From a bacterium (GTDB lineage: Bacteria > Patescibacteriota > Minisyncoccia > UBA6257 > 02-FULL-45-10c), in the NCBI GenBank assembly GCA_021786945.1, contig JAJYMK010000003.1, positions 457,471 through 521,470 of the forward strand: a DNA stretch of 64,000 nucleotides, given 5' to 3'. The notes under the pieces are model-generated. The model ran no database searches. It was not told the DNA's origin and was given only the letters and a program-made list of their open reading frames with translations. This document shows positions 2,659-56,127 of this stretch, in pieces. Every line of letters begins with the position of its first letter. Position 1 is the first letter of the stretch. The translations under genes and the position numbers were made by a program.

Positions 2659-3996
2659 ATGGAACCACTTTCTAAATTTAAACAAATAATTATTTTTCTT
2701 GGGGATATTATAGTATTCTATCTTTCCCTTATACTCACCCTGTGGCTACGATACGGCAACGGCTTCTACGGCAACCTCTTTGATTATCATATTGGACCAT
2801 TTTCGGTTATTTTGGCTATATGGCTATTAGTTTTTTATATTGCCGGTATTTACGACTTAAAAAACTTAAAAAATGATCTGGAATTCGAAAAAAAGTTCTG
2901 GTACTCTCTGCTTTTCAACGCCGGCATCTCAACCATCTTTTTTTATCTGAGCACAAATATAAATATAGCCCCAAAAACTAACCTTTTTATTTTCATTATA
3001 ATTTTCGGCGGGCTTGGCTATTTTTACAGACAGATCATCAACTCCATTCTTGGAAAAAATGAAGCGGCCACTAGAATTCTTTTGATTGGAAACAACCGCA
3101 CAACTCAAGAAATAAGCGAATACCTAAAAAACAATACTCAGCTTGGTTATGAGATAAAATTTTGGATGAAAGATGGGCTAAAGGATAAAGAATTTGAACA
3201 TCTTTTCCAAATAATTATAGCCAATAATATAAACACTATAGTTATTCCGGCCCATATTAAAAAAGACTTTGTATCTGCAAGCCTAATATATAAAACTCTT
3301 TTGGCAGGTATAGACATAATGGATTTGGCCGCTCTTTATGAATTAGTTTTCAAAAAAGTTCCTTTGTCCGAATTAGAAGAAGTCTGGTTTCTGGAAAATA
3401 TTACAAAAAAACACAAAATTTACGAATACATTGTAAATCCACTGGAATATATAATGGCCTTTATAATGCTTATCGTTCTGTCTCCCGTTCTTTTGATAAT
3501 TGCTTTAGCTGTAAAACTTACTTCAGAGGGATCGGCTATTTTCAAACAAAAAAGAGTGGGTAAAAACGGCCAGGAATTCACTATTTATAAATTCCGCACA
3601 ATGAAAATAGATGCCGAAAAAAATGGGCCGCAGTGGGCAAATTATTTTAAAGATGAAAGGGCTACTAAAATCGGTAAATTTTTGCGCGCCTCGCATTTAG
3701 ATGAGTTGCCACAACTTATGAATATACTGAAGGGCGAGCTTTCTTTTATAGGACCACGGCCAGAAAGACCTGAATTTGTGGCTAGTCTCAAAAAAGAAAT
3801 TCCCTACTATGAACTTCGCCATCTCACCAAACCAGGAATAACCGGCTGGGCTCAAATAAACTTCAGATATAGCGCTACCGTAGAAGAGGCATATGAAAAA
3901 ACCCAATTTGATATATATTATATAAAAAACAATTCTCCTTTTCTGGATTTAAGTATTTTACTAAGAACAATAAAATTTATTTTTACCAACAACTAA
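2659..3996 (+). CDS. polyprenyl-phosphate sugar phosphotransferase (bacterial sugar transferase, WbaP/EPS priming family)
   Basis: N-terminal multi-TM region plus C-terminal sugar-transferase domain with KQKRVGKNGQEFTIYKFRTM and DELPQL motifs. Confidence 0.8.
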   Translation: MEPLSKFKQIIIFLGDIIVFYLSLILTLWLRYGNGFYGNLFDYHIGPFSVILAIWLLVFYIAGIYDLKNLKNDLEFEKKFWYSLLFNAGISTIFFYLSTNINIAPKTNLFIFIIIFGGLGYFYRQIINSILGKNEAATRILLIGNNRTTQEISEYLKNNTQLGYEIKFWMKDGLKDKEFEHLFQIIIANNINTIVIPAHIKKDFVSASLIYKTLLAGIDIMDLAALYELVFKKVPLSELEEVWFLENITKKHKIYEYIVNPLEYIMAFIMLIVLSPVLLIIALAVKLTSEGSAIFKQKRVGKNGQEFTIYKFRTMKIDAEKNGPQWANYFKDERATKIGKFLRASHLDELPQLMNILKGELSFIGPRPERPEFVASLKKEIPYYELRHLTKPGITGWAQINFRYSATVEEAYEKTQFDIYYIKNNSPFLDLSILLRTIKFIFTNN

Positions 3997-4028: not shown

Positions 4029-4979
4029 TTATCTTGTTTCAAACCACTCTATTGTTCTTTTAAGGCCTTCCAAAAAATCAACCTTGGGTTTGTAGCCGAT
4101 AGTTTTTTTGGCCAAATTTATATCCGCCAAGGTGTGCATCACGTCGCCCACCCTCGAAGCTCTTTTCTCTAATTCAAGTTTCATGCCGGTATATTTTTCT
4201 ATCAATTTTTTAATCTCTATCAAATTAGTCCTTTCACCATTAGCTATATTCATACAAATTCCCTTCAATGGTTTTTTACTAAGCATACAAGCAATATTGG
4301 CATCTACCACATTGTCTACATAACAAAAATCTCTAGATTGTTTTCCATTTCCCTCAATAAATGCCTTTTTATCTTTGGGGAAATAGAGGGCCTCCAACCA
4401 AGCGGCGACAACCGTGGAATACGGCGAATCTCCATATTGACCCGGACCAAAAACATTAAAATATCTCATACAAACCGTATCTAGGCTATATAACTGGCTA
4501 AAAATCTTGCAAAACGGCTCGCAATCATATTTTTGAACGGCGTAAGGGACTTGCGGATCCGGAAAATTTTCCGATTCTTTAGTCGGAATATATTTTGCTC
4601 CCCCATATACCGAAGACGAAGAAGAAAACATAAATCTTTTTACTTTAAACTTACGGGAAAAATCCAATAAATTTACGGTTCCTAAAATATTAACTTCGGT
4701 AGTCAATACTGGATTTTCTACAGAAAAAGAAACTCTTGGCAAAGCCGCAAAATGAAAGACATATTCGGGCTTATGTTTAGAAAATATCTTTGCCAATAAT
4801 TTTTTATTTAAAATACTTCCTTTATAAAAAATTATCGATTTTTCTATCGCATCTTTTCTACCCGTAGAAAAATCGTCTATTCCCACAATTTCAATTGCAG
4901 GAAACCTATTTTTAAATATTTTTACAAAATTACTACCTATAAATCCGGCACAGCCGGTAACTAAAATTGATTTTTTCAT
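4029..4979 (-). CDS. NAD-dependent epimerase/dehydratase (UDP-sugar 4-epimerase-like)
   Basis: Rossmann motif VTGCAGFIGS near N-terminus. ORF track extends to 5087, but the likely start is the internal ATG (MKKSILVTG) at 4979, which removes overlap with the next gene. Confidence 0.75.
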   Translation of the reverse strand: MKKSILVTGCAGFIGSNFVKIFKNRFPAIEIVGIDDFSTGRKDAIEKSIIFYKGSILNKKLLAKIFSKHKPEYVFHFAALPRVSFSVENPVLTTEVNILGTVNLLDFSRKFKVKRFMFSSSSSVYGGAKYIPTKESENFPDPQVPYAVQKYDCEPFCKIFSQLYSLDTVCMRYFNVFGPGQYGDSPYSTVVAAWLEALYFPKDKKAFIEGNGKQSRDFCYVDNVVDANIACMLSKKPLKGICMNIANGERTNLIEIKKLIEKYTGMKLELEKRASRVGDVMHTLADINLAKKTIGYKPKVDFLEGLKRTIEWFETR

Positions 4980-16254: not shown

Positions 16255-16717
16255 CTACCTGTTGAAGGTGGGGACTCTTTCCATCCTTTCGATGAGGTCT
16301 TTGTCGCTATGGTAAGAGCAGTAATTCTTGCCCATCACCACGTCGCCGAGTATCTCGCCGATCCGCAACTGCGGATTGTGCTTCAGCGCATGCTTCAGCA
16401 TTTTTGCGAACTTGGCGTTCTGGTCGACAGTCCTGATCTTGTTCTGCATGTCCTTCGGAAAACCGAAGGCCAGCATCAGATCGCCCACGCTCGGCTGCCC
16501 CTCCCCGTGAAACGCTCTCAAGTCCATAGCGAACTCGAGATCGGTTTTGTACGAGAAGCAGCCCTCCCCGCTCATGATCCAAAAGATCAGGTTTGCCCAA
16601 GAGGTCTTGGGATTGCGGCAAGCCGCATTCTCAAACGCCTCGGCAAACCGGGCCGAATCCTTGTTCGACCTGTTGCACTTCTGCTCGCCGTAGTAGTTCC
16701 TTCTCTGATTTTTCATA
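16255..16717 (-). CDS. hypothetical protein (154 aa) encoded by a visibly G+C-rich segment
   Basis: Start set at ATG (MKNQRRNYYGEQK) preceded by AGGAGG; the ORF track's longer 16255-16824 version lacks an SD. Several overlapping ORFs on other frames/strands reflect high GC. No family recognised. Confidence 0.5.
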
Positions 16718-16924
16718 TCGTTCCTCCTGGAATTTTCACTGAAACATGCCGAAAACCAATATGCCGACACCCATAACAATCCGGATGGCGGTATCCAATA
16801 ACTCATTAAGCTTATCCGAAGCAATATTCATAAATAAATCCCCTTTTATTAAATTTTCAATGTAATTTTACTATATTAACACAAAAATTGATTTTTGACA
16901 AGTACTAATAAAAATACCCAATTA

Positions 16925-29303: not shown

Positions 29304-29561
29304 TTACTTTATGTTTATATCCAGCTTATATCCGAGACCTGCCGATATCTTTATGAGGGTCTTGAGGGTGATATTTCCCCTTCTGAAGTCATTTTCGATC
29401 TGACAAACCCTGGCCTGAGCCATTCCGGCTTTTTCGGCCAGCTCCGCCTGACTCATACCCGACTTCTCCCTTAGAAGCTTAACGATCCTGCCCAGAGTTG
29501 TGGGGTTCCCCGCGCCATCTCTGCACCTTCCACCTTCAAAAACTATCGAGTGTTTTTTCAT
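29304..29561 (-). CDS. XRE-family helix-turn-helix transcriptional regulator
   Basis: LGRIVKLLREKSGMSQAELAEKAGMAQARVCQIEN is a Cro/C1-type HTH; coding segment visibly G+C-richer than flanks; GGAGGA SD. Confidence 0.7.
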   Translation of the reverse strand: MKKHSIVFEGGRCRDGAGNPTTLGRIVKLLREKSGMSQAELAEKAGMAQARVCQIENDFRRGNITLKTLIKISAGLGYKLDINIK

Positions 29562-31808: not shown

Positions 31809-32354
31809 TTAAAGCGGGTTGGCGGAGGAAAACAGCTCGAACGCCTTTTTAGTATCCAGGCGGCCGGAACCCAGAAAAAGATCCTTAAAGAAAGCGCCCA
31901 GCCTCTTCTGTTCGGCGTTGCTGAAATAAGCCAACGACGAAAACTTCAGAGGAAAGAGCTTGGATTTTTCTTCCAGGACTCTGTACTTACACTCGTCTTC
32001 GTTGCAGCAGGTAAAACGGTGGCCATAAGAACAGCCGCCATAGCTGTAACGGACGGAAAACATCTCCACTTTCTTGCGCTCTCCGTCATACGAGCAGTAA
32101 GGACACTCTTCGGAACTCTTAATGAACTCACCGGCCCTCATCACCCAAGCCAGGTGCAGATGCAACCTGTTGGGCAAAGAACCGGAAGCCATATTTTTAT
32201 CCGCTATATTCTTCAGATAGACCAGATATCCGTGATCCGCAAACATCAGCGCCTCTACGGACTGGCCGGCTTTTTTTCCGGACTTAAACATATACGGCCC
32301 GGACAACTCATAAGGAAAATTGCTTCCTTTTATCACTACGTTTACCAGAGCCAT
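31809..32354 (-). CDS. hypothetical Cys-rich protein (181 aa) on a G+C-rich segment
   Basis: GGAGG SD 5 nt upstream of ATG; Cys cluster ECPYCSYDGE...GGCSYGHRFTCCNEDEC suggests a zinc-binding module; opposite-strand ORF 31779-32402 rejected. Confidence 0.55.
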   Translation of the reverse strand: MALVNVVIKGSNFPYELSGPYMFKSGKKAGQSVEALMFADHGYLVYLKNIADKNMASGSLPNRLHLHLAWVMRAGEFIKSSEECPYCSYDGERKKVEMFSVRYSYGGCSYGHRFTCCNEDECKYRVLEEKSKLFPLKFSSLAYFSNAEQKRLGAFFKDLFLGSGRLDTKKAFELFSSANPL

Positions 32355-33230: not shown

Positions 33231-33353
33231 AGAGTATGTATAGAAGATAATAATCCAAAAATGAATCTATTTCAACAATAATTACACAGAATAAAAAAAT
33301 GAAACTGTTGAAAATACACTAAAAATAGAATAAACTATTTCTAGTTTAAAAAA

Positions 33354-33424
33354 CGGAGTGTCGTATAACGGCAGTATGCATGCTTTGGGAGCATGCGGCC
33401 TGGGTTCAATTCCCAGCACTCCGA
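33354..33424 (+). tRNA. tRNA-Pro (anticodon TGG)
   Basis: Acceptor CGGAGTG/CACTCCG, anticodon stem-loop CATGC-UUUGGGA-GCATG (identical loop to E. coli tRNA-Pro UGG), T-arm CTGGGTTCAATTCCCAG; short D-loop. Confidence 0.7.
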
Positions 33425-33466
33425 CAAAAATTTTTCTTATAAAAAATAAAACCGGTTTTCATGGGC

Positions 33467-33494
33467 TTGATTTTTTTTAGCGATATGCTATTAT
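33467..33494 (+). promoter_or_regulatory. promoter TTGATT-16-TATTAT for cassette 1
   Basis: Homologous to cassette 2 promoter (shared CTTGAYTTT...ATGCTAWTATA). Confidence 0.5.
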
Positions 33495-33566
33495 AGCAAC
33501 TCGCTGTTTAACAACTCCGACTGCGCCCTAAGCGCTGCCGGAAATATAAAAGGACGAGGAGAAAGC

Positions 33567-33920
33567 ATGAACAAAACCACGAAAACTGCGGTACTGGTGA
33601 TAGACACGGACACGACGATCAACGAGGACATCCTCAACGTGATCAGGACCAACCACGGCACGAACACGCGCATCAAGACGGTGCGCTCGGCCAAAGCGTT
33701 CGCGACCCCCTACGGGTTCACGAACCTGGTCCAGCAGTACACCACCGGGCGCAACACTACCGTGTACGCCCTCAAGACCGATCTGAAGGGTCCGGCCCTG
33801 AAGGCGGCGATGCAGACGGGCATCAAGTTCAACCTCCTGTTCAGGAACAGGAGCAGGAACTGGAACTCGGTCAGCGCCCGCCAGATCACGGCCTCCAGCC
33901 CGCGGCCGAAGTATAGCTAA
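33567..33920 (+). CDS. small protein, cassette paralog A (117 aa), unknown family
   Basis: AGGAG SD; shares HGTNTRI(K/R)xVRS, GFTxL(V/I)QQ, T(T/A)TVYA blocks with 34169-34495; G+C-rich; antisense ORFs rejected. Confidence 0.6.
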   Translation: MNKTTKTAVLVIDTDTTINEDILNVIRTNHGTNTRIKTVRSAKAFATPYGFTNLVQQYTTGRNTTVYALKTDLKGPALKAAMQTGIKFNLLFRNRSRNWNSVSARQITASSPRPKYS

Positions 33921-33928
33921 GCCGCGCA

Positions 33929-34072
33929 AGCAGCCGCAGAGCAGAGAGAGACAATGCGGAAAAGCCTATGAAGCCCGACAAAATAGTGGCTAAGTAGGTC
34001 GGCTACGGAGCCGAAGTGTAGTAAGCCCCGCATCATCCAACAAAACACGGATGGTGCGGGGCCTTTTTTTAT
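33929..34072 (+). repeat. conserved 144-nt 3' element (copy 1) ending in long-stem intrinsic terminator
   Basis: 142/144 identical to 34571-34714; internal hairpins GCCCGAC...GTCGGC and CGGCT-ACGG-AGCCG; terminator stem CCCCGCATCATCC/GGATGGTGCGGGG + T7. Confidence 0.75.
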
Positions 34073-34083
34073 TTTTAAATAAC

Positions 34084-34111
34084 TTGACTTTTATAAAAAC
34101 TATGCTAATAT
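34084..34111 (+). promoter_or_regulatory. promoter TTGACT-16-TAATAT for cassette 2
   Basis: Homologous to cassette 1 promoter. Confidence 0.5.
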
Positions 34112-34168
34112 ATTTTCTACCGTTTTAAAAAACGGTTCGGTACTTTAAAAAACAGGAGAAGTTATTTA

Positions 34169-34495
34169 ATGAACAACAAAAAGACTGTGGTTCTGGCGAC
34201 GAAGAGCGGCAACGTGGACAATGCGGTAATACGCATCATCAAGTCCAAACACGGGACTAACACGAGAATACGCTTCGTGCGGTCCAGCAGGGTTTTCAAC
34301 ACGGACTCGGGTTTCACTACCCTGATCCAGCAGAATCGCAATACCGCTACGGTGTACGCGATCCGCGAAGAACTGCCCCGCAACTCCTTCGAAACCGCGG
34401 TGAAAACCGGCCTGGCTTTCTGCATCCTGAACAAGGACGCAAACAAGGGCTGGAACATCTTCCACCGCCGCGAAAATAACGGCCTCGCCCAGTAA
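34169..34495 (+). CDS. small protein, cassette paralog B (108 aa), unknown family
   Basis: CAGGAGAAG SD; paralog of 33567-33920 (by-eye under half of positions identical); G+C-rich. Confidence 0.6.
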   Translation: MNNKKTVVLATKSGNVDNAVIRIIKSKHGTNTRIRFVRSSRVFNTDSGFTTLIQQNRNTATVYAIREELPRNSFETAVKTGLAFCILNKDANKGWNIFHRRENNGLAQ

Positions 34496-34570
34496 GTAAA
34501 CCAGGCCGATAGCGGCACGCAGCGTAGTTGCAGCGAAAGAAAAAGCAGCAAAAACGCAGTGAAAGAGAAA

Positions 34571-34714
34571 AGCAGCCGCAGAGCAGAGAGAGACAATGCG
34601 GAAAAGCCTATGAAGCCCGACAAAATAGTGGCTAAGTAGGTCGGCTACGGAGCCGCAGTGTAGTACGCCCCGCATCATCCAACAAAACACGGATGGTGCG
34701 GGGCCTTTTTTTAT
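34571..34714 (+). repeat. conserved 144-nt 3' element (copy 2) ending in long-stem intrinsic terminator
   Basis: Differs from copy 1 at two positions only (ccgAagtg/ccgCagtg; gtaAgcc/gtaCgcc). Confidence 0.75.
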
Positions 34715-34755
34715 CCCACGTATAAGTTTTATATGAGGGATTTATTTATTTCAGA

Positions 34756-34783
34756 TTGACAAAATCAAAAAAATAAGTATAAT
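34756..34783 (+). promoter_or_regulatory. consensus promoter TTGACA-16-TATAAT
   Basis: Exact -35 and -10 hexamers upstream of 34869-35123. Confidence 0.6.
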
Positions 34784-34868
34784 TATTACCATATTTGTTG
34801 CTCTGCACCAAAGTAATAGCCACTTAACAAATAAATAAAAGCTGTTTGTAATCAAGGAGAAAAGTATC

Positions 34869-35123
34869 ATGTCTAAATTAGCTGTTATCGTCGGTACGAG
34901 CGAAGTAACCCGCGATCCGCTCGAACTTCTTATCGAAAAAGAGGAAAGGGTTAAAAGAGACAAAAAGGACGAAGAAAGCGATAATAAAGGAGAAGTCAAA
35001 GTTTCTGCGCCCTGCCTCGTATTAATTCCCAACTCTTTCAAAGAGGCCTGCGAAGATCCGTGCGAGATTCTGATAGCTCTGTCGGATCCCGAGGAAGTTC
35101 TGCGCCAGGCGTTAATAAACTAA
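34869..35123 (+). CDS. small acidic hypothetical protein (84 aa)
   Basis: AAGGAGAAAAG SD, consensus promoter upstream, terminator at 35179-35204; no family recognised. Confidence 0.5.
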   Translation: MSKLAVIVGTSEVTRDPLELLIEKEERVKRDKKDEESDNKGEVKVSAPCLVLIPNSFKEACEDPCEILIALSDPEEVLRQALIN

Positions 35124-35178
35124 ACCAGCGCAATTCAGCCAATGACATCGTGGACTTAAAGGAGGTCCGCAAAAAACA

Positions 35179-35204
35179 AAAGCCCCGCTATAAAAGCGGG
35201 GCTT
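35179..35204. terminator. bidirectional intrinsic terminator
   Basis: hairpin AAAGCCCCGC-TATAAAA-GCGGGGCTTT between convergent genes. Confidence 0.75.
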
Positions 35205-35210
35205 TAACTT

Positions 35211-35849
35211 TTAATTTATCGCACTATCAAACTCTCTAAGTTTCTGATTAAACGAGTCATTTAAAGAATTTATATCATCGCCTTCCCTGTTCATATTGTT
35301 TATAAATATCTGAACGTTATCACCGTCATAATTTTTATCACCCTCGAATTTCATCTTTAGTACCTTCAACAAACCCTCAAAATAAGCATTGTAATTCAAT
35401 AGATGGTTTATTAAAGAAACTTCCTGAGAAACAGCATCAAAAGCCAAACTCTTAGCCGTTGCTGGTTTTATACCCTGCACCGCCTGGGCCATTTTCCCCA
35501 ATTTATCGGAAAGTTCCAAGGCTTTATTTTTTGCATTCTCTATATTTTTAGTTTCTTCTTCAACTAGATTCAATGCGCTGGAAAATCTTCCGGCTTTATC
35601 CTCTTCGGATATTTTATCCAAATTTTTAACTGAAGCATCTAAAATAACAACTAAATCTGAAGCCAAAACAGAGCTCTGACTTCTGGCGTCCTTGAAATTA
35701 TCGGGAACAAAAGATCTTGAAGCGGAAAAATAAAATACTATTCCGGCCAAAACCAGGGCCAAAATAATCCACATTATTACCAATCCGGAAACCGAGGATC
35801 TTGTTTTCATAATAGATTTTATTATAATAGAATAGTTGAAATAATACAA
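35211..35849 (-). CDS. membrane-anchored hypothetical protein
   Basis: N-terminal TM helix (…GLVIMWIILALVLAGIVFYF), coiled-coil-like soluble part; start uncertain (alternative ATG at 35810). Confidence 0.5.
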   Translation of the reverse strand: MYYFNYSIIIKSIMKTRSSVSGLVIMWIILALVLAGIVFYFSASRSFVPDNFKDARSQSSVLASDLVVILDASVKNLDKISEEDKAGRFSSALNLVEEETKNIENAKNKALELSDKLGKMAQAVQGIKPATAKSLAFDAVSQEVSLINHLLNYNAYFEGLLKVLKMKFEGDKNYDGDNVQIFINNMNREGDDINSLNDSFNQKLREFDSAIN

Positions 35850-53861: not shown

Positions 53862-53905
53862 ATCCCCCTGTTCATAACAGAACAAGGGGATGTTTTTTTT
53901 TACTT
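53862..53905. terminator. bidirectional intrinsic terminator
   Basis: ATCCCCCTGTTC-ATAACAG-AACAAGGGGAT with flanking A5 and T9. Confidence 0.7.
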
Positions 53906-54532
53906 CCTGAAAGGAAGCACGCCATCGATAAGGCCGTAAGCTTTCGCTTCTTCGGCGGACATATAGAGGTTCCTCTCCATGTCCTTCTGGACCTTTTCGA
54001 AGGTCTGGCCGCAATGCTTAGCGATGATCTCGGTAAGCACCTTCTTGTTGAGCTGCATTTCCTTGGCCTCGATTTCGATGTCCGTTGCCTGACCGGAAAT
54101 GCCGCCGCCCATTATCAGGGGCTGGTGGATCATGATACGGGAGTTTGGCAGCGCGAAACGCTTACCTTTTGTTCCCGACGCCAGGATCACCGCACCGAAG
54201 CTCATCGCCATCCCCATACACACGGTAGAGACAGGGCTCTTGATGAACTGCATAGCATCGTAAACAGCCAAGCCGGCCGTTACCATGCCGCCGGGCGAAT
54301 TTATGTAAAGGCAGATATCTTTGGAATCATCTTGTGAATCCAAGTACAGCATCTGCGCGATCAGTGAATTCGCTGACTCGGTAGTGAACTCGCCTTCGTA
54401 ACCACCCACAAAGATAATGCGGTCGGTTAAAAGACGGGAGTAGATATCGTAAGCCCTTTCCACGCCAGCCACCTTCCCGATGACAGTCGGGATAACGCTG
54501 ACGGCTTTTATCACGCCACGTTCCTTTTTCAT
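53900..54532 (-). CDS. clpP: ATP-dependent Clp protease proteolytic subunit (G+C-rich paralog)
   Basis: [11 protein letters not shown]…[15 protein letters not shown], catalytic Ser in GMAMSFG, His in MIHQP; strong AAGGAGGAAGG SD; coding sequence visibly G+C-richer than the adjacent clpP. Confidence 0.85.
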
Positions 54533-55542: not shown

Positions 55543-56127
55543 ATGGAAAGCAAAATAAAAGTTGTTCTGGAAGGCATCGGCCGCGGCCTCCTCATGCATA
55601 AATTTTGCATCGAGGCTTACGAAAACCAGGTAAAGAAGAACAAAGCCAAGCCTTCGCCTGAAGAAGAGGCGGAAAGAGTGGCTTATCGCCTGGCGCCCGA
55701 AAAAGAATCCGAAAAAGGACAGCTCTGCCTTCCGGCCGAGCACTTCATAGGATCTCTTATCTCGGCGGGAGCTGGCTTCAAGCAAGTCGGCGGCGGCAAG
55801 AAAACCTACAAAAGCGTACTCACCGGCAATCTGGATATCTGCCCAGAAAACGTGGGCCTCACGGACGCGAAAGGCACTCCGCTGAAGGACTACAAAATAG
55901 ACAGTCGCCCGGTATGTATCAGGGCAACTAAAGGCCGGATTATCCGCCACCGCCCGCTTATAGAAGTAGGCTGGCGCGCGGAATTCACATTAGTACTCTC
56001 GGACGATTCGGTTCCGCTAGAGGTAATCAAGGCGGTTCTCGAAGAAGCCGGTAAAAGCAAATGCGTCGGCGATTTTCGCCCGCGCTTCGGCCAGTTCCGA
56101 GTTATTTCCGTGGACAAAATTCAGTAA
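55543..56127 (+). CDS. hypothetical protein (194 aa) on a G+C-rich segment
   Basis: AGGAGG SD 7 nt upstream of ATG; no family recognised; followed by (NNGGT)n array and terminator. Confidence 0.55.
   Translation: MESKIKVVLEGIGRGLLMHKFCIEAYENQVKKNKAKPSPEEEAERVAYRLAPEKESEKGQLCLPAEHFIGSLISAGAGFKQVGGGKKTYKSVLTGNLDICPENVGLTDAKGTPLKDYKIDSRPVCIRATKGRIIRHRPLIEVGWRAEFTLVLSDDSVPLEVIKAVLEEAGKSKCVGDFRPRFGQFRVISVDKIQ

Follow-up and report, generated by a model that had tools for sequence, protein, structure and literature searches.

Two paralogous small-protein genes of Patescibacteria share a conserved, homogenised 3' module that most likely acts as an RNA 3'-end element

Why should a non-coding segment be almost the same behind two genes whose coding sequences have diverged so far? 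In the window (the whole stretch of 64,000 nucleotides analysed here), two small open reading frames lie in tandem downstream of a tRNA-Pro(TGG) gene (33354-33425, identified by ARAGORN and Rfam; features are on the forward strand unless stated otherwise), and each is followed by one copy of a direct repeat (33928-34072 and 34570-34714). An earlier note on this DNA had described an element of 144 nt differing at two positions. The repeat proved to be 145 nt long; the count of two mismatches stands, both being A/C differences (34014/34656 and 34024/34666).

We compared the two proteins with each other and with their relatives at homologous loci (designated L). ORF1 (33567-33920; A-type, 117 aa, pI 10.9) and ORF2 (34169-34495; B-type, 108 aa, pI 11.0) are 36-38% identical (BLASTP 38%, E=3e-22), in agreement with their first description as paralogs identical at fewer than half of their positions. 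Different codons are used at 15 of the 39 identical residues, with a difference at codon position 3 in every case, indicating that conservation acts on the proteins. The closest relatives of ORF1 are the A-cassette proteins of L016 (45%) and L024 (42%), and those of ORF2 are L016_B (65% over 52 aa), P0003 from L017 (56%) and L024_B (55%). Since ORF1 is nearest to A genes and ORF2 to B genes, with 36% identity between the two, the A/B duplication is, on sequence evidence, ancient. The family comprises about 25 cluster representatives, which are basic (pI 9-11). The AlphaFold2 model of ORF1 (pLDDT 87) has the topology beta-alpha-beta-alpha-beta-alpha-beta-beta, and the predicted family fold is Rossmann-like. 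Members had no match in Pfam, NCBIfam, PADLOC or PHROGs, and fold searches returned only generic Rossmann-like matches and no known RNA-binding family, in line with the earlier note, which recognised no family for them. The Rossmann-like ligand-binding domains CARF and SAVED are listed among the closest known systems. The polyvalent-protein domain LPD15 of Pfam was considered and rejected: one of 26 members (P0025) matched it, scoring 21.2 bits where the cut-off is 27, and over the C-terminal half only. Comparison of the ORF2 protein with phages and plasmids gave no match, pattern-based locus searches of genome and viral collections with the ORF1/ORF2 profile returned nothing, and a literature search on highly expressed small proteins of Patescibacteria found nothing relevant.

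Each cassette possesses its own promoter, at the sequences first proposed, and a Shine-Dalgarno (SD) sequence. The promoters are TTGATT-16-TATTAT for cassette 1 (33467-33494) and TTGACT-16-TAATAT for cassette 2 (34084-34111), both TG-extended. From the -35 box to about +18, cassette 1 is identical at 44 of 47 positions to the A cassette of the sister species, and homologous promoters precede the B-type genes in L016, L024, L021 and L001. The cassette 1 leader (33495-33566) consists, in order, of a conserved start AGCAACTCGCTGTTTAACA, a hairpin (33516-33542), the segment GAAATATAAAAGG and the SD; it was delineated by folds, covariation and a match to covariance model R1 (33512-33554). The cassette 2 leader (34112-34168), read from the aligned leaders, has a 5'-proximal hairpin (34119-34136), then the conserved GTACTTTAA (34140-34148) and the SD. 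When per-sequence folds were combined with a hand-set structure on 10 family leaders, six of nine base pairs showed compensatory changes, a level reached by none of 500 shuffles. The 5' leader hairpin is supported by this covariation as a candidate motif.

Downstream of both cassettes, the announced third small acidic gene was confirmed: ORF3 (34869-35123; 84 aa, pI 4.6), with the promoter TTGACA-16-TATAAT (34756-34783). Its promoter and 5'UTR are 80% identical to those of L024, its product carries a repeated DPLxxLIxxEE-like motif, and a small ORF occupies the same position in L001, L021, L017, L022 and L024, so that it qualifies as a conserved downstream partner gene. A toxin-antitoxin pair formed by a basic ORF and the acidic ORF3 was rejected, as the genes have separate promoters and terminators, Pfam, PADLOC and NCBIfam gave no hits, and the position is conserved instead of patchy.

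The two copies of the repeat have the same anatomy. In copy 1, a variable purine-rich tract (33928-33959) is followed by two hairpins, P2 (33964-33999) and P3 (34000-34013), a spacer AAGUGUAGUAA (34014-34024), a terminator stem-loop (34025-34062) and a U-tract (34064-34070). The corresponding parts of copy 2 are P2 (34606-34641), P3 (34642-34655), the terminator (34667-34704) and the U-tract (34706-34712). The stem had been given as 13 bp; a terminator is indeed present, with a stem of 14 bp, a 10-nt loop and seven U, and both copies (34025-34070 and 34667-34712) have the properties of an intrinsic terminator. A scan tool missed it because of its loop limit of 8 nt. Compensatory changes in the terminator occur in L017 and L016, its 38-nt core had zero matches in shuffled controls, and the fold of the module reaches z-scores of -5.2 to -7.3. 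The internal hairpin previously drawn as GCCCGAC/GTCGGC is disfavoured both by thermodynamic prediction and by strain variation, which prefer P2, a GCCUAU..GUAGGU / AGCC..GGCU hairpin. Four distinct close sequences contain no true covariation in P2 or P3; the stems are invariant, and this neither supports nor argues against their pairing. Copy 2 is preceded by a purine- and GCAG-rich proximal 3'UTR specific to ORF2 (34496-34569), in which a 27-nt imperfect tandem repeat extends into the module. Two small ORFs within the module (MRKSL and MKPDKIVAK) were discarded, their start codons and frame being destroyed in a sister strain.

We searched for further copies of the module. The 64-kb window contains two, both behind family genes, and in 190 kb covariance model R2 found strong copies at the 3' ends of family genes only, which disposes of a dispersed small repeat of the REP or MITE kind. 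Weaker related 3'UTRs were detected by the same model in L017 (68 bits), L016 (47 bits) and L003 (38 bits). An exact 25-mer of the module was absent from genome, metagenome and viral collections, and phages yielded no blastn match. At the gathering score, Rfam recognised only tRNAs in the window; in a permissive scan of 33300-35300, the modules and leaders stayed below gathering, and the nearby matches (E 0.02-8.7) look terminator-driven.

The sister species, represented by locus L024, carries an equivalent A/B gene pair, and both of its cassettes end in one 112-nt module (3770-3881 and 4401-4512), 100% identical within that genome. The last 112 nt of the window module match it at 102 of 112 positions (about 90%), and P2, P3 and the spacer together at 57 of 67. 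Five other intergenic regions of the window are 60-83% identical to the L024 genome; the excess of the module over ordinary intergenic DNA is moderate (0.90 versus up to 0.83). At conserved residues of housekeeping proteins, the fraction of identical codons between window and L024 is 0.51-0.58, for a saturation expectation of 0.44-0.48; across all genes, synonymous sites have thus come close to saturation between window and sister species. The substitutions between the two modules affect the loops of P3 and of the terminator and the junctions of P2. None fell in the P3 and terminator stems, 10 of the 12 P2 pairs are unchanged, and spacer and stems are conserved at the level of the bases. In more distant relatives only short motifs (AAAAYAGYGGC and CAGYGUAGUA) and the terminator persist, and L001 and L021 have no module, indicating that the full module is clade-specific. 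Global-alignment identity was dropped as a measure for distant 3'UTRs, since it has a poor null (shuffled identity 0.58).

The two copies also change together. Five derived changes of a sister strain (L015 and L009) are each present in its two copies; the two positions at which the copies of the window disagree are homogenised there, and two of the shared changes strengthen P2. The cassettes flanking the module show 0-2 differences between the window and this strain, ORF1 and ORF2 being nearly invariant. Differences between strains concentrate in the 5' third of the 145-nt repeat, a hotspot of divergence, so that constraint does not cover the whole repeat. Concerted evolution by gene conversion is known in bacteria from tufA/tufB and the rRNA operons. 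As in tufA/tufB, copies in the same genome are more alike here than positional counterparts in sister genomes; unlike there, conversion is confined to a non-coding tail of 112-145 nt, next to coding regions that have diverged to 36%. GC-biased conversion in bacteria is a subject of PMC4450053.

Could conversion alone account for the identity? Recent non-allelic conversion or a segmental copy would then have produced a neutral likeness, and the module would serve termination and nothing else. Conversion clearly operates, the copy behind ORF2 looks like a patch, preceded as it is by 74 nt of 3'UTR proper to ORF2, and strains differ freely in the 5' third of the repeat. However, conversion within a genome cannot yield conservation between species, and the module stands behind both cassettes of the sister species with its non-terminator parts largely preserved while synonymous sites approach saturation. 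We therefore regard a purely neutral origin as distinctly unlikely. Conservation of about 90% across species despite near-saturated synonymous sites, together with homogenisation of the copies, indicates purifying selection as well as concerted evolution. The earlier suggestion, that conservation of the 3' module exceeds that of the genes through selection, gene conversion or both, is borne out, as both act.

Several bacterial small RNAs, such as CpxQ, SroC and DapZ, are derived from 3'UTRs. The module resembles them as the conserved 3' end of an mRNA, terminator included, whose conservation exceeds that of parts of the preceding gene; it differs from them in having no Rfam family and in standing as two copies behind paralogous genes. 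Its last 80-110 nt, including the terminator, might be released as a small RNA acting in trans, in which case the spacer CAGUGUAGUAA and the P2 loop GACAAAAUAG would be the pairing parts and the two copies would double the dose. Consistent with such a role, conservation concerns the sequence itself and not structure alone, compact hairpins precede the terminator, and GUAGUA, just upstream of the terminator, reappears in distant family members. On the other hand, we found no internal promoter-like site in the module and no Rfam match, and its presence behind family genes only fits a role in cis at least as well. Release of a trans-acting RNA is accordingly unlikely in our estimate, though quite conceivable.

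A constraint on DNA was also considered. The leader and the 3' module would serve as homology arms or recombination sites for the swapping or amplification of ORF alleles, by integron-like or cassette exchange or by unequal crossing-over. The non-coding flanks are conserved around very divergent ORFs: family proteins are 42-55% identical between window and L024, as compared with 87-95% for housekeeping proteins. This divergence may result from allele replacement or from fast evolution in place, which cannot be told apart with synonymous sites so close to saturation in every gene. L003 contains tandem arrays of at least six paralogs. Two contigs could point to rearrangement: L011 lacks ORF2 and continues from ORF1 into a copy-2-type module and ORF3, and in L010 (790 bp) both ends repeat one sequence and a copy-2-type module is joined to copy-1-type downstream sequence. 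However, both have the shape of de Bruijn assembler output for a direct repeat as long as the k-mer (their names indicate k=141). The cassettes do recall those of integrons with their attC sites, as tandem small ORFs of no assigned function, each with a structured and better-conserved 3' element, but they have their own promoters and terminators, their ORFs are paralogous and they keep the same place from lineage to lineage. A scan of 10 neighbours revealed no integrase, and no GTTRRRY-type core is visible at the module ends. Given in addition the near-invariance of ORF1 and ORF2 between strains, a recombination role appears very improbable.

Several short-read assemblies break at this site, at the repeat. 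Contig L008 (ENA ERZ27236928) has the tandem arrangement with both repeat copies and is 100% identical to the window over 3554 nt. The arrangement of the sister species was found in two separate assemblies, one from JGI and one from ENA, L025 being identical to L024 across the region. This agreement indicates that assembly collapse, which had been envisaged as a source of the identical segments, does not explain them. In the ENA contigs L008, L011 and L012, the recorded gene calls give an antisense ORF in place of ORF1. Assemblies broken at the repeat and antisense gene calls explain why protein databases hardly contain ORF1.

The block adjoins a tRNA gene and its local G+C content is high, 0.58-0.60 in ORF1 versus 0.38 across the window. 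On these grounds it had been described as a G+C-rich block at a classic integration position. The high G+C content is real; the sense of a foreign island is not supported, as the excess is limited to codon position 3 and is shared. GC3 is 0.91 in ORF1 and 0.77 in ORF2, versus 0.33 in the rest of the genome; neither GC1 nor GC2 is unusual, and the GC3 excess extends to the sister-species orthologs and to other genes of the window, for example a clpP paralog, 16255-16806. The order tRNA-Pro, family gene(s), ORF3-like gene, membrane-protein gene (reverse strand), tRNA-Gly and ECF sigma factor is found again in L001, L021 and L024, tRNA-Gly being limited to the window and L001. In the window, the membrane-protein gene (35211-35849, reverse strand) converges on ORF3, and a terminator hairpin flanked on either side by T-rich tracts (35179-35205, no strand assigned) occupies the interval. 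L016 and L017 keep the left part of the block only, with an Na/Ca-exchanger gene upstream of the family gene. Gene order of this kind is thus known from four further lineages of Patescibacteria. A tRNA-Pro gene lies at the equivalent position in L001, L002 and L024, tRNA-like 3' ends are discernible upstream in L021 and L023, and other lineages have AT-rich versions of the family gene at the equivalent position. Such conserved gene order is at odds with an island, and the scanned neighbours and a repeat search revealed neither an integrase nor a duplicated tRNA end. The tRNA-Pro gene is a conserved upstream neighbour, not an integration scar. A foreign island, or a repeat made by assembly, is hardly credible and is already refuted by this evidence: assemblies do break at the repeat, but separate ones agree on the tandem structure.

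The explanation that we hold to be probable is that of a locus inherited vertically in Patescibacteria (Parcubacteria/Paceibacteria-like), with two ancient paralogs and a shared RNA 3'-end module kept by selection and gene conversion. Each paralog forms a self-contained transcription unit, driven by a strong extended -10 promoter of the sigma-70 type and made up, from 5' to 3', of a leader hairpin, an A-rich spacer, the SD, a GC3-rich ORF, a structured 3'UTR and a long-stem terminator. The 145-nt repeat represents 3'UTR and terminator, and the conserved module with which both transcripts would end takes up roughly its final 112 nt (P2, P3, the 11-nt spacer and the terminator). Paralogy, anatomy, gene order, conservation across species and concerted evolution are demonstrated by the sequences; that the constraint acts on RNA is our inference. 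As far as sequence allows us to judge, the module is most likely an RNA 3'-end element for termination, stability or factor binding. It would protect or regulate both transcripts in cis, by stabilising their 3' ends, by docking a sequence-specific factor (perhaps the basic family protein itself), or by both. Purifying selection between species and conversion between the copies of each genome maintain it.

Parallels exist for both ends of such transcripts. The positive retroregulator of Bacillus thuringiensis cry genes is an intrinsic terminator with a 3' stabilising stem-loop, and ompA and STAB-SD are types of 5' stabiliser hairpins. Like the former, the module ends a strongly promoted gene with a long G+C-rich stem and a U-tract, with hairpins just upstream; like the latter, the cassettes have a 5' hairpin close to the SD. 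Unlike in the cry retroregulator and ompA, the sequence itself is conserved across species, with two identical copies in one genome. Leader hairpin and 3' module might also be recognition sites for the basic protein encoded between them, which would then belong to a new class of self-regulating RNA-binding proteins of Patescibacteria. As in the autoregulatory leaders of ribosomal proteins, a gene for a small basic protein follows a structure-conserved hairpin near the SD; unlike there, the family fold matches no known RNA-binding family, and we consider this proposal rather unlikely. If it were true, each paralog mRNA would be clamped at both ends, the identical 3' modules would hold both paralogs under one control, or the module might double as a released small RNA, and the extreme GC3 would reflect selection for a structured, RNase-resistant message.

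Patescibacteria contain many small genes without assigned function, and their post-transcriptional regulation is almost unstudied. The locus offers three linked handles on it: a candidate leader motif with covariation support, a candidate 3'-end RNA module conserved across species and homogenised within the genome, and a fast-evolving family of basic proteins whose GC3 rises far above that of the rest of the genome. Existing metatranscriptomes, together with simple reporter or binding assays, would suffice to test them.

Two genes of one family follow tRNA-Pro (33354-33425, + strand): the A-type ORF1 (33567-33920, +; 117 aa) and the B-type ORF2 (34169-34495, +; 108 aa). They are paralogs (38% identity, E=3e-22 by BLASTP), and each is preceded by a strong SD sequence and by its own sigma-70-type promoter with a TG-extended -10 box (33467-33494 and 34084-34111, both +). 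Codon choice differs at 15 of the 39 residues identical between ORF1 and ORF2, in all 15 cases at position 3, indicating that a protein is conserved, not an RNA. Both cassettes end in a 145-nt direct repeat (33928-34072 and 34570-34714, +; 2 mismatches between the copies), the 3' end of which consists of a 14-bp stem with a loop of 10 nt, followed by seven U. This 3' module is the common 3' end of both mRNAs. The arrangement described in the earlier note, two paralogous ORFs with their own promoters and a near-identical 3' repeat, was confirmed; a second assembly (contig L008) carries the same tandem with 100% identity over 3554 nt. ORF1 also contains an internal inverted repeat (33812-33875, core CCUCCUGUUC/GAACAGGAG). 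Against shuffled controls, the ORF1 mRNA has the better fold (z=-3.5); for ORF2 the advantage is less clear (z=-1.8). The recorded gene calls on three ENA contigs (L008, L011 and L012) give a 133-aa antisense ORF (33528-33929, -) and not ORF1, which is on record from one 619-bp contig only; several assemblies are broken at the repeat.

The evolution of the repeat was followed by comparison with contigs L015 and L009 of a sister strain, whose flanking DNA is about 98-99% identical to the window. Its ORF2 cassette showed 0 differences over 560 nt and its ORF1 cassette two. Five derived changes (G>A, T>C, G>A, +A and C>T) were present in both repeat copies of this strain, and the two sites distinguishing the copies in the window were homogenised; the copies thus undergo concerted evolution. 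The predicted hairpin P2 is strengthened by two of these common changes (U>C and +A), the folding energy going from -50.2 to -54.2 kcal/mol. Divergence between strains was concentrated in the purine-/GCAG-rich 5' part of the repeat (33923-33979 and 34576-34621), with 8 and 17 differences against L015 and L009, including a 7-nt insertion, compared with 0-2 in the adjoining cassettes. Small ORFs inside the module were rejected as genes, since changes in this strain destroy them.

In the sister species represented by contig L024, a single 112-nt module closes both cassettes (3770-3881 and 4401-4512 of that contig). Its copies there are 100% identical, and the arrangement was seen in two separate assemblies. 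The window module matches that of L024 at 102 of 112 positions (about 90%). Between the same two species, five other intergenic regions are 60-83% identical, housekeeping proteins 87-95% and the family proteins 42% (A) and 55% (B); codons at conserved housekeeping-gene residues are identical in a fraction of 0.51-0.58, with 0.44-0.48 expected at saturation. The ten differences in the module fall in the loop of hairpin P3, in the terminator loop and at the P2 junctions. No difference affects the P3 and terminator stems, 10 of the 12 P2 pairs are unchanged, and the spacer differs only at a site that also differs between the two copies of the window. This conservation, together with the identity of the copies within L024, shows that the module is under constraint from species to species and is kept homogeneous within each genome. 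Related 3'UTRs were recognisable in contigs L017, L016 and L003 (68, 47 and 38 bits with R2, a covariance model of the module), keeping the short motifs AAAAYAGYGGC and CAGYGUAGUA and a terminator with compensatory changes. No such module was found in two other lineages (contigs L001 and L021), no further copy in 190 kb of sequence searched, no further copy of an exact module 25-mer in public collections and no match in Rfam. The pairing predicted in P2 and P3 showed no covariation among the distinct sequences compared, which are too few to establish it.

Because the sequence itself is conserved, and not merely the hairpin shape, we infer a role of the module at the RNA level, namely termination together with protection of the 3' end and/or sequence-specific docking. 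The central proposal of the earlier note, a non-coding element under selection or gene conversion, was upheld and sharpened by the comparisons with L024 and the sister strain. Release of the module as a 3'UTR-derived small RNA and a functionless conversion patch are remaining rivals, as is a DNA-level role in recombination. The last is the reading on which two contigs bear. In L011 (sample ERZ27237183), ORF1 is linked to a copy-2-type module and to ORF3, the small acidic ORF downstream, and ORF2 is absent; in L010 (790 bp), a copy-2-type module is fused to downstream sequence of the copy-1 type, and both ends of the contig repeat the same sequence. These contigs could be products of unequal crossover. 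However, their names indicate k=141, and their shape is exactly that expected when an assembler collapses a k-mer-long direct repeat. They represent either such a collapse or real deletion and duplication products of recombination between the repeats.

At the other end of the mRNAs, a hairpin ending just before (G)AAAUAUAAAG and the SD sequence was found in 15 of 17 family genes (leaders at 33495-33566 and 34112-34168, +, in the window, and others in L003, L004, L016, L017 and L021-L024). In 10 aligned leaders, 87% of cells were paired, against 29-54% in slid controls; compensatory changes occurred in 6 of 9 pairs, and the observed score was reached by 0 of 500 shuffles. The leader covariance model matched family genes only. 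A linear motif directly after the -10 box is also conserved (CTCGCTGTTTAACA in A-type leaders, GTACTTTAA in B-type), and the A-cassette promoter with the first ~18 transcribed bases is identical at 44 of 47 positions between the window and L024. We regard this family-wide 5' leader as a candidate for a new cis-regulatory RNA motif.

The earlier note had also suggested an island integrated at tRNA-Pro. The neighbours of the locus are ordinary chromosomal genes (EamA transporter, ECF-type sigma factor, RNase Y, HU), in a window of 38% G+C whose phosphoglycerate mutase (iPGM) shares 76-84% identity with NCBI proteins named 'Patescibacteria group bacterium' and 60-66% with those of Pacebacteria, Harrisonbacteria and Wolfebacteria. 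The block reads tRNA-His(-), tRNA-Phe(-), tRNA-Arg(-), tRNA-Pro(+), family gene, ORF3-like gene, membrane-protein gene (minus strand), tRNA-Gly, sigma factor and a 161-aa ORF. It is complete in L001 (JGI, 210-kb contig), runs from the family gene onward in L021 (tRNA-Gly without confirmation) and is present in the sister species (L024/L025, iPGM identity 89%), where tRNA-Pro is followed by an inserted gene for a Na/Ca exchanger. L016 and L017, both short contigs, show only the Na/Ca exchanger plus family gene(s), with a small ORF downstream in L017. Recurrence of the block in these lineages rules out the island.

Nor is base composition a mark of foreign origin. Third-position G+C (GC3) is 0.91 in ORF1 and 0.77 in ORF2, against a mean of 0.33 (sd 0.04) for the 26 long ORFs of the window, GC1 and GC2 being normal. 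The shift is common to the L024 orthologs (0.88 and 0.78) and, more weakly, to relatives in L003, L004, L017 and L022 (0.44-0.80), and is absent from the AT-rich lineages L001 and L021 (0.23 and 0.29). It also extends to five other window genes, at 16255-16806(-), 53900-54532(-), 31809-32354(-), 55543-56127(+) and 29304-29561(-), the whole class spanning 0.57-0.91 with normal GC1 and GC2 and including one of two adjacent clpP paralogs and not the other. Expression-linked selection, mRNA structure and GC-biased conversion are candidate causes.

A profile of ORF1 and ORF2 matched 25 cluster representatives among 1.84 billion. The family proteins (104-162 aa) are nearly all basic (pI 8.7-11) and, as the earlier note had supposed, belong to no recognised family: nothing matched in Pfam, PHROG, NCBIfam or PADLOC, apart from a single sub-threshold match to LPD15 in one member. 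The nearest relatives of ORF1 are the A-cassette proteins of L016 (45% identity) and L024 (42%), and those of ORF2 are the B-type proteins of L016 (65% over the 52 aa available), L017 (56%) and L024 (55%); ORF1 and ORF2 are 36% identical in this comparison. The A/B duplication is therefore ancient. Non-syntenic loci (L003 2400-7481, and L004-L007) carry arrays of six or more family paralogs along with further small-gene families common to these loci, each having a promoter and terminator of its own. One such family is represented by proteins of 81 aa in L003 and 77 aa in L004, which have LYYLRPPSSK in common. The C-terminal tails of many members resemble ssrA-like degradation tags; those of P0003, P0009, P0011, P0015, P0016, P0019 and P0022 are disordered and end in small non-polar residues (..TAVGAAA, ..TAVGAAS, ..AIAVAA, ..NLAAA, ..AAVNA).

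ORF3 (34869-35123, +; 84 aa, pI 4.6), with a perfect TTGACA-16-TATAAT promoter, is a conserved acidic partner gene in which a DPLxxLIxxEE-like motif is repeated twice (counterparts at L001 6418-6705, L021 770-1069 and L024 4644-4847). Its protein is only 49% identical to that of L024, its promoter and 5'UTR 80%. With ORF1 at 42%, ORF2 at 55%, and the sigma factor, iPGM, RNase Y and HU at 87-95%, all three small proteins evolve far faster than their surroundings, by either fast in-place evolution or allele replacement, which are indistinguishable because synonymous sites are near saturation. The locus adds a new example to two known kinds of feature, structured UTR elements and concerted evolution, associated here with a fast-evolving family of uncharacterised proteins from a phylum that is poorly understood.
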